Notes under the pieces: generated by a model | What the model saw: the letters and a program-made list of their open reading frames with translations, nothing else | Database searches by the model: none | Told to the model about the DNA's origin: nothing | Virus record (IMG/VR): IMGVR_UViG_3300048592_000986 | Origin: a virus | Reading direction: 5' to 3' (one strand) | DNA: 5,704 nucleotides | Made by a program: the position numbers and the translations under genes | Part shown: positions 748 through 5,704 of the stretch, in pieces | Numbering within the stretch: position 1 is the stretch's first letter | How the letters are laid out: the number at the start of each line of letters is the position of its first letter

Positions 748-1008
748 ATGATTACTGTACTTCCGAATCCAACTGGTGATGAGAAGCTCACCGTTACCGT
801 GCAGATGACCCGCCGCCAGCTTGCCGAAATCGGCTACGCCTTAGGATGCCTGCAACGCGAAACCTCGAGGAATCTTGAATACTTGAAAGCAGATTCCGAT
901 ATGTTCGAAGCGACATTGAGTGACCTGGCGTTCCTGCGAGGCATCCGCGAGCAATGGCTGGATGCGATGCCAGCCGAATACTTCGAAGCGACGGAGCCCC
1001 TGGCCTAA
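748..1008 (+). CDS. Hypothetical 86-aa acidic protein on the opposite strand; candidate regulator or accessory gene
   Basis: ATG at 748 is preceded by AGGAG (734-738) with a 9-nt spacer. The TTG at 718 in the ORF track falls in the T-tract and lacks an SD. The protein is MITVLPNPTGDEKLTVTVQMTRRQLAEIGYALGCLQRETSRNLEYLKADSDMFEATLSDLAFLRGIREQWLDAMPAEYFEATEPLA. It has only a weak HTH-like stretch (TRRQLAEIGYALGCLQRETS), and I recognise no family. Confidence 0.6.
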   Translation: MITVLPNPTGDEKLTVTVQMTRRQLAEIGYALGCLQRETSRNLEYLKADSDMFEATLSDLAFLRGIREQWLDAMPAEYFEATEPLA

Positions 1009-2048
1009 CGGCCGGGGACGACTGGCCGCTCAGCGGCTCCGGTTCCGTCGGAACCGGAGCCGTTTCCTTTTGGAGAGGCCGCGTCCAACCGTGCAATATT
1101 CTCGGCCTTGATATCCGGCACCTCCCGCGTCGGATCGAACACACGACCCGCCATGAAATCGCGGCAAACGTCGGACGCTACGTTCGCATCGCCCTGGCCG
1201 TTGTAGCACTTGCACGTTCGCACGTTGCCGACCTGCAAAGACATACACCCGGTAATCCGCGGAACCGACACCAACTTAACCTGGCCGTCGTAGTGCGGAG
1301 CCGACCAGGGCCAATGCGGAACCCGGGGCGTAAGGCTGGCAGCGTTCCATTGATCGGTCGGCGGGATACGCTCGCCACCTGGCCGCACTTCAGCAGATTC
1401 TGTTTCGACTTCGCCCTGACTCATCAACCGATCCGCCGCAAACCACCCCAGGCCAATAACACCAAGCACGGCAGCCGCCAACGTGAGAATCGGCTTCCAG
1501 GGAAGCTCCTTCTTGACCGTGTGCATATCGGCCGATTTGTACTGGTCGAAGCGTTCCTTCGGAAAATTGAACCGCGACACGAGCGCTTTGTTGCGCGCGC
1601 TCCGGTCGTTCGGGTCCGTGCATTCCTCCCATTGCAGGAGCGTAGACGAATCCTGGCCGAATGTTCGCTTTAGGTGGTAGTGCCGTCCGGTGAGCTTCCG
1701 CACAGCAATGTCAAGCAACTGGGGATGTTGCGTGATGAGAAAGACGTCAAACCCGCGATGGCGGTGTGTCTCAAATTCGGAGACCGCTCGCGGCACAGCC
1801 GCACCTGTTTTGCGAGGTGGGAATACGCGCTGGCATTCGTCAATGACGACGATGGACCCGTTCGGCAACTCCCACCATTTGGCCGGATCATCCAGCGTTT
1901 TCCACGGGAGCTTTAGTTCCGGAATGCCCGACTGATAAACCTCCCGGTTGCTTGCCACGCTCGCAGGATCAAGACGTAATTTCTCAACCAAGCCCAGGGT
2001 GAAAAGTGTTTTGCCATTGCCAGGTTGCCCCGTGATTAGATTGAGCAT
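1005..2048 (-). CDS. zot: Zot / pI-type inovirus assembly ATPase (347 aa)
   Basis: N-terminal Walker A is GQPGNGKT and Walker B-like is SIVVIDECQ. A single central TM segment (ILTLAAAVLGVIGLGWFAA) is followed by a Cys-containing periplasmic C-terminal domain. The ATG at 2048 has GGGGG 4 nt upstream. It occupies the last position of the morphogenesis module, as gene I does in Ff and zot in CTXphi. Confidence 0.93.
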   Translation of the reverse strand: MLNLITGQPGNGKTLFTLGLVEKLRLDPASVASNREVYQSGIPELKLPWKTLDDPAKWWELPNGSIVVIDECQRVFPPRKTGAAVPRAVSEFETHRHRGFDVFLITQHPQLLDIAVRKLTGRHYHLKRTFGQDSSTLLQWEECTDPNDRSARNKALVSRFNFPKERFDQYKSADMHTVKKELPWKPILTLAAAVLGVIGLGWFAADRLMSQGEVETESAEVRPGGERIPPTDQWNAASLTPRVPHWPWSAPHYDGQVKLVSVPRITGCMSLQVGNVRTCKCYNGQGDANVASDVCRDFMAGRVFDPTREVPDIKAENIARLDAASPKGNGSGSDGTGAAERPVVPGR

Positions 2049-2063: not shown

Positions 2064-2378
2064 TCAATAACCGCCGTCGTTCCTGCAGTTAAAATCATTT
2101 TCCAGCGAATACTCCTCCCATTCCGGATTCCACGGTTCGTCCTCGTCCGGGTGGTTCACCGCTTCGTGATAGTCCGATTCGCCGCCAACCTGCTCAGCCT
2201 CGCGCATATCTTCATCATTCCAATCGAAATCGCTCTCCACACCCATCAGAGCCGATTTCACCCACTTGAAGGCCGCCAGCGCGACATAGATCGACAGAAC
2301 CGCAATACCCACTTCGGCCAGCCCGGGAACTTGTGCCGCAATTTCCGTTGTGACCGCTGATACGTCAATGCTCGCCAC
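2064..2378 (-). CDS. Major-coat-protein paralogue without a signal peptide, fused to a 60-aa acidic Trp-rich tail (104 aa)
   Basis: I chose the GTG at 2378 because GGAGGA lies 7 nt upstream and the g6p-like stop lies inside that spacer. The track's GTG at 2429 has no SD and overlaps the previous gene by 47 nt. Residues 4-44 (IDVSAVTTEIAAQVPGLAEVGIAVLSIYVALAAFKWVKSAL) align ungapped with coat residues 22-62 at 19 of 41 identities, including AFKWV. The tail has 21 D/E against 2 R, and 3 W. Confidence 0.7.
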   Translation of the reverse strand: MASIDVSAVTTEIAAQVPGLAEVGIAVLSIYVALAAFKWVKSALMGVESDFDWNDEDMREAEQVGGESDYHEAVNHPDEDEPWNPEWEEYSLENDFNCRNDGGY

Positions 2379-2382
2379 GGTA

Positions 2383-2706
2383 TCATCCTCCGCTCGAATT
2401 CGTGAGCCACCGACCGACCGCAATTCCACCAGCGGCAGTGAGCCCTTTCAGAGAAAGCGTCGCCAAGTACGCCGAGAACATCAACCGCATGAAGTCATCG
2501 ACGCGCGCCATTGCAAGAATTTGCAGGATGGAATTGCTGGTCGCGCCGAAATTCGAAAACACGAACGCTTCCGCGTCAGCAAACAATTCCCCGATTCCGT
2601 AATACGTGGCAACGCTGAAACCAATTGCAAGCAAAACGCGCGTCACCAGGGACACGGCAATGTACGACAGCACCGACGCTAGAGTAATTACGACCGGGAA
2701 CGCCAT
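2383..2706 (-). CDS. g6p-like small hydrophobic virion/membrane protein (107 aa), positional analogue of gene VI
   Basis: The ATG at 2706 overlaps the TAA of the upstream gene (TAATG). GGGAG/GAAGG lies upstream. The protein has multiple hydrophobic segments (MAFPVVITLASVLSYIAVSLVTRVLLAIGFSVATYY...). Its size and its position after the adsorption gene match Ff g6p (112 aa). The assignment rests on position and hydropathy only. Confidence 0.7.
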   Translation of the reverse strand: MAFPVVITLASVLSYIAVSLVTRVLLAIGFSVATYYGIGELFADAEAFVFSNFGATSNSILQILAMARVDDFMRLMFSAYLATLSLKGLTAAGGIAVGRWLTNSSGG

Positions 2707-4082
2707 TACGCCTTCACTCCCTTGACGATAATTCCAATCGCAATTAGATAGCCCATCATCATCACGACCGGCGCGAACAGCACCGCCATTTCGCACGCGC
2801 GCAACCAAATATCAAGGGACAACGTCCGCCCCATCACCGTGACGCTGATCGGAGCGGGACACGAACCCGAAAATCCACCATCGGCATTCAATGACGTGAT
2901 TTCGATAGGATCCGCGCCGCCGGTTAGGTCGCCCTCTTGTTCAGCTTCGGTTGCCCCGATGGCCGCTAGCGCGTCCTCAGCGGAAATCGCGTCGACGCAA
3001 CGCGTACGCCATTGCTGATTCAGCATTGCACATTGCACCGGGTCATCATGCGTACACGTTGGCGGCGTATCACAGACGGCACCGCCCGATGCCTGGCCGA
3101 CTGGCCCCGTGGTTTCCTCGCCCGAACCCTCACCGTCGCCGCCGATCGGACCAGACCCACCCGTGCCGGAGCCATCAGGCACAGGCCGCGACGAACCGCC
3201 GACGGTCGTGCTGCTGTACTGGTTAATTTGCTGGCAGGAATTCGCGCCCGTGCACGCTTCCACGGTGGCATCGGGCGTCGCAGGAACCCCGGGCGTGCCG
3301 TTGTCAGGCTTGGGCGGCATCGGCGCGGTTTCCGCACAGACCACAGACCCGTCGGAATTCTTAAAGCACTTGTCCGGCGTCACCTGGTTAAGACAGGTCC
3401 ACTTGTCATTGAGGAACCCGCAATTTTCACCAGTCTGCGGACCCCGGCAAAAATCCCCGATACAAGTCTCGCCCTCGGAAGTCATATCCTCGACGGGTAT
3501 TACCGGCTCGTCGTCACACGGCAAGCCCGTGAACTGGTACGACACCAGGTAATTGAAAACGCCACCGCCGTCATTGACGCGCCAGTAACGCGTGGGGCCG
3601 CTGGTGGTCTGAATGTCGCGCTTGAACGCCGCGCAACCATCGACGCAAATATCCGCTGGCGGAGAGTATTCCGCGCCGCCGGTATGCGTGCCCAATTGCC
3701 GCTGATTCATGAGCGCTTCACACTCTGGTTCGTCCGGACAAACTGCCGGAGTGATAGCCGTCCGACTGATCAGAAATTGCGGCCAAACACCATCGGTGCG
3801 CTTGAAGCGATAGAAATATTGCGTGCAATCGGGCGCACCGGAATTGCAATATTCCTGATAGGTTTCAAGGAAAACACCGCCACTCGCAGCGATGCCGCAC
3901 GCTTTAGCGGATTCATATGAACCCGGCGTACCTCCACAGGCATCGGCCACTATAGGATTGCCACCCGCGGACCAGGTGCCCGCTATCTCACCATCATCGA
4001 CACAATCCGGCCAAGCGCCAAACGCCACCGATGGCAAACACGCGACGGCTACGAATGCTATCAGTCGCGAAACATGATCCAT
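2706..4082 (-). CDS. g3p-like adsorption / minor coat protein (458 aa from ATG 4082; alternative TTG start at 4115)
   Basis: The signal peptide is MDHVSRLIAFVAVACLPSVAFG|A. The N-terminal part is very Cys-rich. A Gly/Ser-rich linker follows (GGSSRPVPDGSGTGGSGPIGGDGEGSGEETTGPVGQASGG). The C-terminal domain ends in a membrane anchor (MAVLFAPVVMMMGYLIAIGIIVKGVKA). It is the largest ORF and lies directly after the major coat gene, which is the g3p architecture. Confidence 0.8.
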   Translation of the reverse strand: MDHVSRLIAFVAVACLPSVAFGAWPDCVDDGEIAGTWSAGGNPIVADACGGTPGSYESAKACGIAASGGVFLETYQEYCNSGAPDCTQYFYRFKRTDGVWPQFLISRTAITPAVCPDEPECEALMNQRQLGTHTGGAEYSPPADICVDGCAAFKRDIQTTSGPTRYWRVNDGGGVFNYLVSYQFTGLPCDDEPVIPVEDMTSEGETCIGDFCRGPQTGENCGFLNDKWTCLNQVTPDKCFKNSDGSVVCAETAPMPPKPDNGTPGVPATPDATVEACTGANSCQQINQYSSTTVGGSSRPVPDGSGTGGSGPIGGDGEGSGEETTGPVGQASGGAVCDTPPTCTHDDPVQCAMLNQQWRTRCVDAISAEDALAAIGATEAEQEGDLTGGADPIEITSLNADGGFSGSCPAPISVTVMGRTLSLDIWLRACEMAVLFAPVVMMMGYLIAIGIIVKGVKA

Positions 4083-4123
4083 GCGGCACCGAGCAATGCG
4101 AGCAGCAAAAACCAACCTTCCAT
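4061..4123 (-). CDS. Candidate 20-aa hydrophobic micro-protein (MEGWFLLLALLGAAWIMFRD)
   Basis: The ATG at 4123 has GAGGGGG (minus strand, 4136-4130) exactly 6 nt upstream, the best SD in this intergenic region. The peptide is single-TM-like. The ORF overlaps the g3p-like ATG (4082) by 22 nt. It is too short for statistical support. Confidence 0.3.
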   Translation of the reverse strand: MEGWFLLLALLGAAWIMFRD

Positions 4124-4179: not shown

Positions 4180-4368
4180 TTACATCGCGCGGCGAACCCA
4201 CTTGAACGCCTTGATGGCGACCAGCAGGAGCAGCACGCCGCCGCCGATGGCGGTAACCGGCGTGACCTGCGCGCCGATGTCGGTCACGACGTCGGCCACA
4301 TCGACGGCCGCAGCGTGCGAGAGCAGCGGCAGGAACGCGGCCGGAGCCGCCACGAGGAACTTACGCAT
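4180..4368 (-). CDS. gVIII: Major coat protein, class-II (Xf/Pf1-like) g8p precursor (62 aa)
   Basis: The ATG at 4368 has GGAG 8 nt upstream and lies 1 nt after the upstream stop (TGAAATG). The signal peptide is MRKFLVAAPAAFLPLLSHA|A. The mature part has an acidic N-terminus (VDVADVVTD), a hydrophobic core and a basic C-terminus (IKAFKWVRRAM). It closely resembles the Xf coat as I recall it (...VDVGDVVSAIQGAAGPIAAIGGAVLTVMVGIKVYKWVRRAM). Confidence 0.9.
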   Translation of the reverse strand: MRKFLVAAPAAFLPLLSHAAAVDVADVVTDIGAQVTPVTAIGGGVLLLLVAIKAFKWVRRAM

Positions 4369-4369
4369 T

Positions 4370-4597
4370 TCAGGAACTCCACAATTGACGAGCAATGACA
4401 CGAAACGCCCAAGCCGCCGCCCACAGAGCAAGGACCGCGCCGCCAATCAGCGCGCCCCCTGCCAGGTCAAGCTCAGGCAGAGCGCTTCCCTGTTCGACCC
4501 ATGACACGACGCCCCCGGCCGCCGTGCAAGTGTCGACGACTGTCGCCGGATCGCCGGGGACACTCGTCGCACCCTCGCAAGTCATGACATATGGCAT
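4370..4597 (-). CDS. 75-aa membrane protein with a coat-like C-terminal helix; candidate minor (tip) coat protein in the g7p/g9p position
   Basis: The ATG at 4597 has GGAG 8 nt upstream. The C-terminal TM (LIGGAVLALWAAAWAFRVIARQL) shares the IGGxVLxL..A..AF+ pattern with the major coat. The N-terminal 45 aa contain two Cys and no obvious signal peptide. It lies between gene V and gene VIII. Confidence 0.65.
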   Translation of the reverse strand: MPYVMTCEGATSVPGDPATVVDTCTAAGGVVSWVEQGSALPELDLAGGALIGGAVLALWAAAWAFRVIARQLWSS

Positions 4598-4687: not shown

Positions 4688-4939
4688 TTATTTCGCCGCC
4701 ACCAGACGAACGCGGGAAATTTCCAGCGACCCGTACTGATTCACAGCAAAGGACGATTCCGCGAGCGCGTACTGGCCGAGCGCGTACGGCTGCGCGCCGT
4801 CCTCCAAGCCAATGCGGAGCCGCCGATACTCGCCGTCAAGCGTCGCCCAAGCCTCCTGCTCGCGAATGCTGTACGGCCGACCCTTCGCAGACGTGCCGGA
4901 CTTCTCCGTAGTCTGCGTTGACTTCACTTCAATTTTCAT
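4688..4939 (-). CDS. gV: g5p-type single-stranded DNA-binding protein (83 aa)
   Basis: The ATG at 4939 has AGGGG 5 nt upstream and overlaps the rep stop by 11 nt. MKIEVKSTQTTEKSGTSAKGRPYSIREQEAWATLDGEYRRLRIGLEDGAQPYALGQYALAESSFAVNQYGSLEISRVRLVAAK is collinear with M13 gene V protein as recalled (..GKPYSLNEQ..GNEYP..LDEGQPAYAPGLYTVHLSSFKVGQFGSLMIDRLRLVPAK). The size is the same (M13 is 87 aa). Confidence 0.93.
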   Translation of the reverse strand: MKIEVKSTQTTEKSGTSAKGRPYSIREQEAWATLDGEYRRLRIGLEDGAQPYALGQYALAESSFAVNQYGSLEISRVRLVAAK

Positions 4940-5704
4940 ACGTACCCCTATTGATGAACACCACACAATAATGCCCGTCCGAATCACGCCCAACGTGAAA
5001 TTCGAACGGACTCCGGAAAACCGTTCCGTCTACGTCGCAGACCCACCCGAGCCGCGCAACGCGCTTCGGCACTCCAGACGGATTCGACGCCTTGTCCAAC
5101 CACACCGGCAAGCGCGAGCGCCGGACGGCATGGCGTTCGTCTAGTGCATTGCCGACGCCATAGAGTCGGGCGCCCTTCGGCACCGAATCTTCATCCACCA
5201 ACCCCCCTTTCGAAGCGTATTTGACCAGGTACCCCACCGCTCGCCGCGCCCGTTCAACCCGAGTAGAGCCGTGGTCCCACCATCCAGCCTGATCGGGTTT
5301 TGGGATTCGGACATGATGCGGAAGCCAGAACAACACGTGATAGTGAGGCACCCCTCGCCGAGTAAGCTCGAGCACCCATTGATAGCGGCAAGCAAAGCCG
5401 CGACTGTTACACCATTCCCGATAACGCTTGGTGAGCTGCGACACGTGCCGCGGTGACCATTCAACGCCTGGTCTGTAGGTCGCCGTGACCATGACAGCAG
5501 ACGGGCGCGCGCCTGCCCGTTCTGCGGAATCACGGCAAGCCTCAGCCGAAGCCACAACAACGCGCCGCAATTTGCGCAAACGACGCTGGAGGTCAAGTTC
5601 GCGATATACGTCGCGCTCGAGGCCGTGATTGGTGCGCGTACACGAGAAGGACGGGCGGTCATCGTTACTTGTTTCCTTATCGACAAGCCCAGGGCCCGGG
5701 GCGG
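4929..5704 (-). CDS. HUH-superfamily rolling-circle replication initiator (Rep), 5'-partial at the window edge; minimal in-window version is TTG 5579 (216 aa)
   Basis: Motif 1-like is VMVTATY, the HUH motif is PHYHVLFW, and the two-tyrosine motif 3 is GYLVKYASK (YxxxY, as in phiX174 A / P2 A-type Reps). It is the first gene of the operon, immediately upstream of gene V. The frame contains no stop and no ATG/GTG/TTG between 5580 and 5704. The true start is therefore either the SD-less TTG at 5579 or the GTG at 179 after circularisation (275 aa). Confidence 0.85.
   Translation of the reverse strand, partial: APGPGLVDKETSNDDRPSFSCTRTNHGLERDVYRELDLQRRLRKLRRVVVASAEACRDSAERAGARPSAVMVTATYRPGVEWSPRHVSQLTKRYREWCNSRGFACRYQWVLELTRRGVPHYHVLFWLPHHVRIPKPDQAGWWDHGSTRVERARRAVGYLVKYASKGGLVDEDSVPKGARLYGVGNALDERHAVRRSRLPVWLDKASNPSGVPKRVARLGWVCDVDGTVFRSPFEFHVGRDSDGHYCVVFINRGTYEN
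5578..5704. repeat. Right copy of the exact 127-nt terminal direct repeat (circularisation overlap)
   Basis: Identical to 1-127. It is the same physical sequence written twice. Confidence 0.97.

Follow-up and report, generated by a model that had tools for sequence, protein, structure and literature searches.

The question raised by this locus is why a filamentous phage should encode, in addition to its major coat protein, a second coat-like protein that carries no leader peptide and ends in a long acidic tail. The locus lies on IMG/VR virus record IMGVR_UViG_3300048592_000986, a stretch of 5,704 nucleotides (nt) to which we refer in its entirety as the window, and the gene in question, here called X, is located between the g6p-like minor coat gene and the gene for the Zot/pI assembly ATPase. 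Our analysis established that X is a real, selected and leaderless coat derivative with an anionic, disordered tail, and that it belongs to a previously unnamed, optional family built on a known coat fold. The reading that we favour, to which we assign a probability of roughly one in three, is that X is a coat mimic, acting either as a low-copy end or plug subunit of the filament or as a competitor of DNA at the assembly site.

The reading frame of X runs on the minus strand from a GTG at 2378 to a TGA at 2066-2064, directly upstream of Zot, as had been proposed in a preliminary description of this DNA, and the Shine-Dalgarno sequence of X comes just after the g6p stop codon (2385-2383). The homologue in locus L014 begins with an ATG, and the frame upstream of it is closed one codon earlier, which indicates that the short start at GTG 2378 is the real one. 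A longer open reading frame (ORF) from a GTG at 2429 (121 amino acids (aa), overlapping g6p) was considered and rejected, as the homologues begin at the cleavage-site Met and the Shine-Dalgarno sequence serves GTG 2378; a fusion or read-through product of g6p and X was likewise rejected, given that the two are in different frames. The identical X protein is present on approximately ten contigs, six of which were read and found to derive from six different samples, and the assembly error that had been raised as a concern is thereby excluded.

X shares 20 of 44 ungapped residues with the mature form of the major coat protein of the same genome (BLASTP E 2e-8), and the previously noted figure of 19 of 41 over residues 4-44 was reproduced exactly. 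The Pfam coat family PF05356 (Phage_Coat_B) matches X with 45.4 bits (cut-off 23.5; E 8.3e-12), residues 2-44 being aligned to profile positions 14-56 of 56, that is to the mature part only, and homologues of X are annotated with PF05356 in their precomputed records too. In every homologue the initiating Met falls on the leader-peptidase site of the coat (M-AA[VI]DV as compared to ...A/AAVDV, the slash marking the site), which, together with the closed upstream frame of L014, shows that the 104-aa leaderless reading is correct; the cleaved procoat leader that precedes A-A-V-D-V in the coat is absent from X, in agreement with the preliminary description. AlphaFold with a 20-sequence alignment, which replaced a run on a two-sequence alignment with a predicted local distance difference test (pLDDT) score of 54, yielded a single helix over residues 6-45 (pLDDT 86-97), continuous as in the coat, followed by a tail of low confidence (pLDDT 54-59) that is essentially disordered, so that the coat-like helix and disordered acidic tail expected from structure prediction and HMMER were both found. 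The nearest solved structure is the coat of Xanthomonas phage Xf (PDB 2IFO, E 1.4e-11), and the Pf1 coat is absent from the PDB search with X at E<=10, so the suggested likeness of the N-terminus to that of Pf1 is weaker than was implied. A Foldseek comparison of the model to PDB and BFVD returned nothing meaningful, as is expected for one helix plus disorder.

Comparison of the X family with true coats indicates which features of the coat are retained. The mature N-terminus A-A-[VI]-D-V and the core residues G24, A26, L28, A36 and F37 are kept equally strongly in both groups, and the basic residues at positions 38 and 41, just past the membrane segment, are also kept in the X family, where they probably represent a positive-inside anchor, which fits the reading favoured here. 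The coat residue K35, in contrast, is present in 96% of coats and in 31% of the X family, R42 is replaced by E, D or S, and of the four basic residues that face the lumen in the coat, X itself lacks two; in place of the short basic DNA-facing coat end (K..K..RRAM) there is a tail of charge -19. A role for X as bulk virion subunit is unlikely in view of the separate canonical coat gene at 4180-4368, and the earlier argument against a DNA-contacting bulk subunit gains from the loss of most Lys35 and Arg42 residues across the family and from tails that are all anionic or neutral.

A count of the 60-aa tail gave 21 Asp or Glu, 2 Arg, no Lys and 3 Trp, the composition that had been reported, and the net charge of whole X is -20. 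Acidic and aromatic equivalents of the membrane-adjacent SDFDWND motif occur in many family members. The tail had also been likened to the acidic tip of single-stranded DNA-binding protein (SSB), a likeness that did not hold, as DFDW lies at residues 50-53 beside the membrane and away from the free C-terminus, and the C-termini of the family are mutually unrelated (...NDGGY, ...ASPYR, ...AFWR, ...PEWDK, ...PPRG), with no SSB tip shared among them. Nor does X possess a rigid DNA-mimic fold of the Ocr or ArdA type, its tail being predicted as disordered and free of Pfam domains; electrostatic DNA mimicry by a disordered tail may nevertheless be compatible with the absence of such a fold. Pfam searches with seven isolated tails detected no domain, the sole hint being a sub-threshold zinc ribbon in family member P0041.

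An exhaustive HMMER search of 1.84 billion representative proteins recovered approximately 18 clusters, all with M-A-A-[VI]-D-V from residue 1 and with C-terminal extensions, to which a profile search added further members. Combining the protein searches with loci fetched via the major coat, the family comprises at least 39 distinct members from metagenomes and from Comamonadaceae prophages, including those of the isolated strains Xenophilus azovorans DSM 13620, Variovorax sp. DXTD-1 and Variovorax sp. CAN15. Their tails range from 15 to 210 aa. No tail among the 39 has a net positive charge, 38 being negative and one neutral; the median charge per residue is -0.2, and aromatic residues make up approximately 11%. 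The distant members from Variovorax and Xenophilus have long, nearly neutral helical tails. The tails are modular, with the recurring blocks HPDEDE, PDPNDPNDPRNYDHDV[FY] (sometimes duplicated), NARVNAIHEENGWDPEWD and GFPLAPAVVQAYADNNGIPPRG, and the tail of P0041 (locus L013, 2920-3261; net charge -16) contains four CxxC pairs resembling two zinc ribbons, a sub-threshold Pfam match. No stretch of 7-10 conserved columns exists in the whole-family alignment, and the N-terminus is one residue shorter in L011, L013 and L099, making the ungapped identity matrix of X versus own coat unreliable for those loci. X was recognised by a coat-domain hidden Markov model plus a tail of at least 10 aa, a rule which more diverged members may escape, and the census was taken on metagenomic contigs, many of them partial.

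No library provides a name for X. PHROGs places it in a family of unknown function, Pfam assigns the coat domain only, and the single NCBIfam match, 'midcut-by-XrtH' at 15.5 bits versus a cut-off of 45, was dismissed as membrane-helix noise. Among GenBank phages, tblastn with X gave only weak matches to ordinary major coat genes, and tblastn with two distant family members gave none; P0011 is the only family member with an NCBI source, where it is without a name. The statement that no protein of this architecture had been described therefore stands as regards nomenclature, and falls as regards uniqueness. Two further coat-region products were observed: P0005 (103 aa), which looks like a tandem coat-gene duplication read as one ORF, and P0012 (88 aa), a coat fused in-frame to the peptide of the micro-ORF that follows the major coat gene (...CVFMALVGAAWIIFGGD). 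Both add to the evidence that duplication and fusion readily occur in the coat region.

Purifying selection acts on each half of X: the ratio of nonsynonymous to synonymous substitution rates (omega) is 0.16-0.23 in the coat-like domain and, for L008 versus L014, 0.12 in the tail, which argues that both halves are functional; the domain evolves 5-10 times faster than the coat. Between the window and L008, a genome of about 93% identity, identity amounts to 90-97% for the coat, for g6p, for Zot and for the coat-like domain of X, and drops in exactly two segments: the N-terminal two-thirds of g3p (approximately 3125-4068, 20-60% identity) and the X tail (approximately 50%). Two regions have been exchanged side by side, the X tail and what is likely to be the receptor-binding portion of g3p. 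L008 and L014, in turn, have the tail in common (86-90%) but not g6p or the X domain. Such swapping indicates that the tail is an exchangeable module, constrained in composition and not in sequence, and that tails of unrelated sequence are uniformly anionic is a constraint on composition as would be expected for an electrostatic role. A sequence-specific fit of the tail to the coat or to Zot is unlikely, since those partners remain 90-97% identical where the tail has diverged by approximately 50%.

The position of the gene between gVI and gI, to which the preliminary description had drawn attention, is not a family trait, as many members lie upstream of the major coat gene. The g6p-X-Zot order, which is that of the window, was found at eight distinct loci. 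Among the 59 loci that could be evaluated, g6p abuts Zot in 51, and no occupant of this slot other than X was encountered. In L010, L011, L013 and L019, and in the prophages of X. azovorans DSM 13620 and two Variovorax strains, X is instead located 5' of a p75-like gene and the major coat gene, the slot that corresponds to gVII/gIX of Ff phages. At either position the gene resides within the structural and assembly module, tightly spaced with g6p and Zot or with the coat gene, and the tail block PDPNDP..NYDHDV is common to members at both positions (L011, L012), from which it follows that the whole gene has moved. The relatives were sampled by major-coat alignment and so form a sample that is independent of X. 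X is missing altogether from the contigs of the 13 relatives that rank next by Zot score, and these contigs are approximately 200-300 nt shorter; since the nearest relatives lack X and have g6p abutting Zot, X is an accessory gene. In X-less relatives the slot before p75 is empty in 40 loci and holds another short ORF with a hydrophobic segment in 22. Around a dozen of these 22, among them L036, L039, L051, L064, L069, L101, L117 and L129, encode a small membrane protein of another kind, likewise leaderless, whose tail is helical and basic (for example MEIDLSLFAQRIAML...RIAQARIRQQAIFRAMPRG), with a charge of +6 to +7, opposite to that of X; this protein has no significant PHROG match. Separately, L101 encodes at 6695-7042, upstream of its g5p, a soluble protein in which a poly-Asp/Glu tail comes after CxxC motifs.

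In the mechanism that we favour, X would have arisen from the major coat gene as an expressed accessory gene. Like the Pf3 coat, the protein would enter the inner membrane unaided by a leader, with its acidic N-terminus in the periplasm and its C-terminus in the cytoplasm, a topology suggested by acidic residues at the N-terminus, by positive ones that follow the helix and by the zinc-ribbon-like tail of P0041, which fits a cytoplasmic location. Having kept the mature N-terminus and the lattice helix, X would partition with the major coat at the Zot site and take a coat position; retention of A-A-[VI]-D-V and of the core in a protein that needs no peptidase site argues for coat-like contacts. 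With two of the four lumen-facing basic residues gone, its disordered polyanionic tail would be unable to lie against DNA and would instead act as a surrogate for DNA, or as its competitor, on basic surfaces. The lumen of the f1 virion is overwhelmingly positive owing to the coat C-termini (PMC10175506), and an anionic tail fits only where DNA is absent or being exchanged. The likeliest target would be the electropositive lumen formed by coat C-termini at the DNA-free end of the filament, making X a low-copy end or plug subunit; the alternative is the DNA-binding groove of g5p while the coat replaces g5p. Several observations weigh against a coat mimic of this kind. X is missing from the nearest relatives, so that no essential capsid or assembly step depends on it. 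A patchy distribution and tail swapping in company with the g3p receptor-binding region are also typical of genes for host interaction or conflict, the nearly neutral helical tails of Variovorax and Xenophilus fit a polyanion role poorly, and a tail of 60-200 aa is hard to house in a lumen of approximately 2 nm, except at the filament end.

It is possible, if on the whole doubtful, that X is directed at the host or at competitors, serving to exclude superinfecting phage, to counter defence or to interfere with rival filamentous phages; the coat-like part would then be an inner-membrane anchor or would mix with incoming or rival coats, and the variable tail would engage a host or competitor target. 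The gain or loss of X among close relatives, the faster evolution of its domain and the confinement of exchange to its tail and the g3p receptor-binding part all agree with this, as does the frequent presence of a different small membrane protein in the same module of X-less relatives, and a precedent is provided by PfsE of Pf4, an inner-membrane protein of the structural module which blocks superinfection by binding PilC via aromatic residues (PMC8764522). An exclusion factor has, however, no obvious need for the exact mature coat N-terminus and lattice residues, and the uniformly anionic composition of unrelated tails points to a generic electrostatic role and not to diverse specific targets; moreover, X matched no anti-defence or PHROG 'moron' model, PADLOC not having been searched.

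That X is a membrane-anchored adaptor outside the virion, the tail of which mimics single-stranded DNA so as to unload g5p at the membrane, or docks on and regulates the cytoplasmic ATPase domain of Zot, is unlikely; this had been the main proposal of the preliminary description. The tight spacing of the gene directly upstream of Zot in the window clade speaks for such an adaptor, as do the mixture of acidic and aromatic residues, which is also seen in mimics of single-stranded DNA and in SSB acidic tails, and the displacement of pV at the pI/pXI site in the Ff model (PMC10175506). Yet Zot is 93-97% identical where X tails diverge by approximately 50%, many members are not adjacent to Zot, the SSB-tip motif is absent from the extreme C-terminus, and in close relatives assembly proceeds without X. 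Furthermore, the upstream single-stranded DNA-binding gene of L010, L011, L013 and L019 has no Pfam Phage_DNA_bind match, so that no single type of g5p accompanies X.

We consider it very unlikely that X is an essential counterpart of pVII/pIX, that is a leading-end cap which starts assembly on the packaging signal. X resembles pVII and pIX in being leaderless and having a single helix, the gVII/gIX slot between the single-stranded DNA-binding gene and the coat gene is occupied in about half of the lineages, and homologues of pVII/pIX are reported to be missing from most integrative filamentous phages (bioRxiv 10.1101/2023.12.30.573655). However, pVII and pIX grip the packaging hairpin via C-terminal arginines (PMC10175506), and X tails are anionic; the X of the window has no basic C-terminus, sits in the g6p-Zot slot instead, and is not part of the core, being absent from the nearest relatives. 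The same genome encodes better-conserved candidates. The first is p75, located between g5p and the coat gene, which has a coat-like C-terminal segment (LALWAAAWAFRVIARQL; Phage_Coat_B E 0.048), matches the 'tail protein' family phrog_4644 with E 6.5e-12 and is represented by homologues in 101 of 135 loci; possibly it is the third protein descended from the coat, and it may suit the role of a conserved tip subunit better than X does. The second is a 20-aa hydrophobic micro-ORF, whose motif GA[AG]W[LIMV][LIMV][FWL], as in MGLFVIIAILGAAWLIFTA, was detected in 93 of 135 loci, just 3' of the coat gene in those checked, and for which PHROGs gave no significant match; its product is a candidate pVII/pIX-like or PfsE-like micro-protein. 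The micro-ORF overlaps the start of g3p (ATG 4082) and was missed by gene callers.

A long shot of comparable improbability is that X, by mimicking the coat, is packaged at low copy and then passes, as coat subunits do, into the inner membrane of the next host at entry, its polyanionic, DNA-mimicking tail serving as a decoy where naked single-stranded DNA comes in, with host nucleases, defence systems or host proteins that handle single-stranded DNA as the targets. If true, X would be without precedent among filamentous phages as an anti-defence or entry factor delivered by the virion, and the swapping of its tail in step with the g3p receptor-binding region would be explained. Finally, a functionless X, be it a decaying or neutral coat duplicate or an artefact of assembly or frameshift, might be suspected from the GTG start and the absence of the gene from close relatives, but is hardly credible given the identical protein in several independent samples, omega of 0.12-0.23 in both halves, the strong Shine-Dalgarno sequence and at least 39 diverged members with intact frames, the same architecture and in-frame indels.

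The features of the window are listed in the table below. An exact terminal direct repeat establishes that the window is a complete circular inovirus genome with a unit length of 5,577 bp, of which the sister contigs are circular permutations, and all of its core genes are on the minus strand. The start of Rep is ambiguous, the ORF list giving 216 aa and the gene callers 275, 254, 264 or 187 aa in sister contigs. The relatives selected by the coat gene derive from genomes and metagenome-assembled genomes of Comamonadaceae and other Burkholderiales, and a host assignment is thus drawn from these relatives rather than from the window contig itself; megablast of the whole window found no match among GenBank phages. 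A scan for consensus terminators and promoters returned no more sites than in shuffled sequence, and a hairpin 3' of the coat gene was not significant (z = -1.0). The sole plus-strand gene, at 718-1008 (96 aa), was called in all sister contigs and converges on Zot, and its product matched no Pfam or PHROG family; this gene and the hairpin that follows it may constitute a regulator with its terminator.

Table. Coordinates of the features of the window and of gene X
Feature	Position	Strand	Basis or remark
Terminal direct repeat	1-127 and 5578-5704		exact, 127 bp
Rep	4929-5579	-	PF23343
g5p	4688-4942	-	PF02303
p75, 75-aa membrane protein	4370-4597	-	phrog_4644
Major coat, 62 aa with leader; parent or paralogue of X	4180-4368	-	PF05356 E 7e-17, full profile 1-56
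20-aa hydrophobic micro-ORF MEGWFLLLALLGAAWIMFRD	4061-4123	-	directly after major coat gene; Shine-Dalgarno GAGGGGGA
g3p-like	2706-4082	-	
g6p-like minor coat, immediately upstream of X	2383-2706	-	DUF2523
Shine-Dalgarno GGAGGA of X	2386-2391	-	7 nt 5' of X GTG; read directly from sequence
X, leaderless coat paralogue	2064-2378	-	104 aa, GTG start; coordinates include stop codon
X coat-like domain, residues 1-45: acidic N-terminus, single transmembrane/lattice helix, AFKWVKSAL	2244-2378	-	PF05356, AlphaFold, 2IFO
X acidic, aromatic-rich disordered tail, residues 46-104	2067-2243	-	composition, pLDDT, omega, recombination
X SDFDWND, membrane-adjacent, residues 49-55	2214-2234	-	conserved in closest homologues
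X HPDEDEP, residues 76-82	2133-2153	-	invariant in window clade; recurs in P0006 and P0024
Zot/pI assembly ATPase	1005-2048	-	ATG 15 nt downstream of X stop codon
GC-rich hairpin, 15-bp stem and T-run	1032-1064		after plus-strand gene, inside 3' end of Zot coding region

Little is known of the minor proteins and accessory factors with which filamentous phages other than Ff are assembled, and the X family adds to them a coat gene that was copied, deprived of its leader and joined to anionic tails which are interchangeable and for which a cytoplasmic placement is predicted. Should X enter the capsid, it would found a class of minor capsid proteins not described before and offer C-terminal display in a natural setting; should it stay out, it would be an assembly or exclusion factor of a new type, one that mimics the coat. 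The immediate impact is limited, the clade being uncultured and the gene dispensable. Among known systems, the class II inovirus major coats (PF05356) share with X the acidic N-terminus, the packing core of Gly and Ala and the motif AF[KR]W[VI][RK], and differ in that they carry a leader and end in ...RRAM, whereas X is leaderless, has a 60-aa acidic tail and is accessory, being present in addition to the coat. The coat of Pf3 is leaderless and inserts by a Sec-independent, YidC-dependent route with its N-terminus out and its C-terminus in. It resembles X in its single helix, its acidic N-terminal tail and the basic residues that follow the membrane segment, a build that makes the same insertion route plausible for X; the match of X to the Pf3 coat (PDB 1IFP) was not significant (E 0.14), and the Pf3 coat differs in being the sole bulk subunit and in having a short basic C-terminus. 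In C-terminal display on M13 pVIII by means of linker fusions, an extended coat subunit is incorporated at low copy beside the wild-type coat; such fusions are artificial and, unlike X, retain the leader and the basic C-terminal segment. PfsE (PA0721) of Pf4, a protein of the inner membrane, is like X in being small and accessory and in having its gene inside the structural module, and its aromatic residues matter for function (PMC8764522), but according to its published description it is 30 aa in length, has a proposed cytoplasmic N-terminus and no acidic tail, and is not described as coat-like. The pVII and pIX proteins of Ff phages, at 32-33 aa, are essential and place basic C-termini on the packaging hairpin, whereas X is at least three times longer, anionic and dispensable in close relatives; they are nonetheless leaderless single-helix proteins packed in the manner of the coat (PMC10175506, PMC10480500), and some members of the X family are encoded in the equivalent gene slot.

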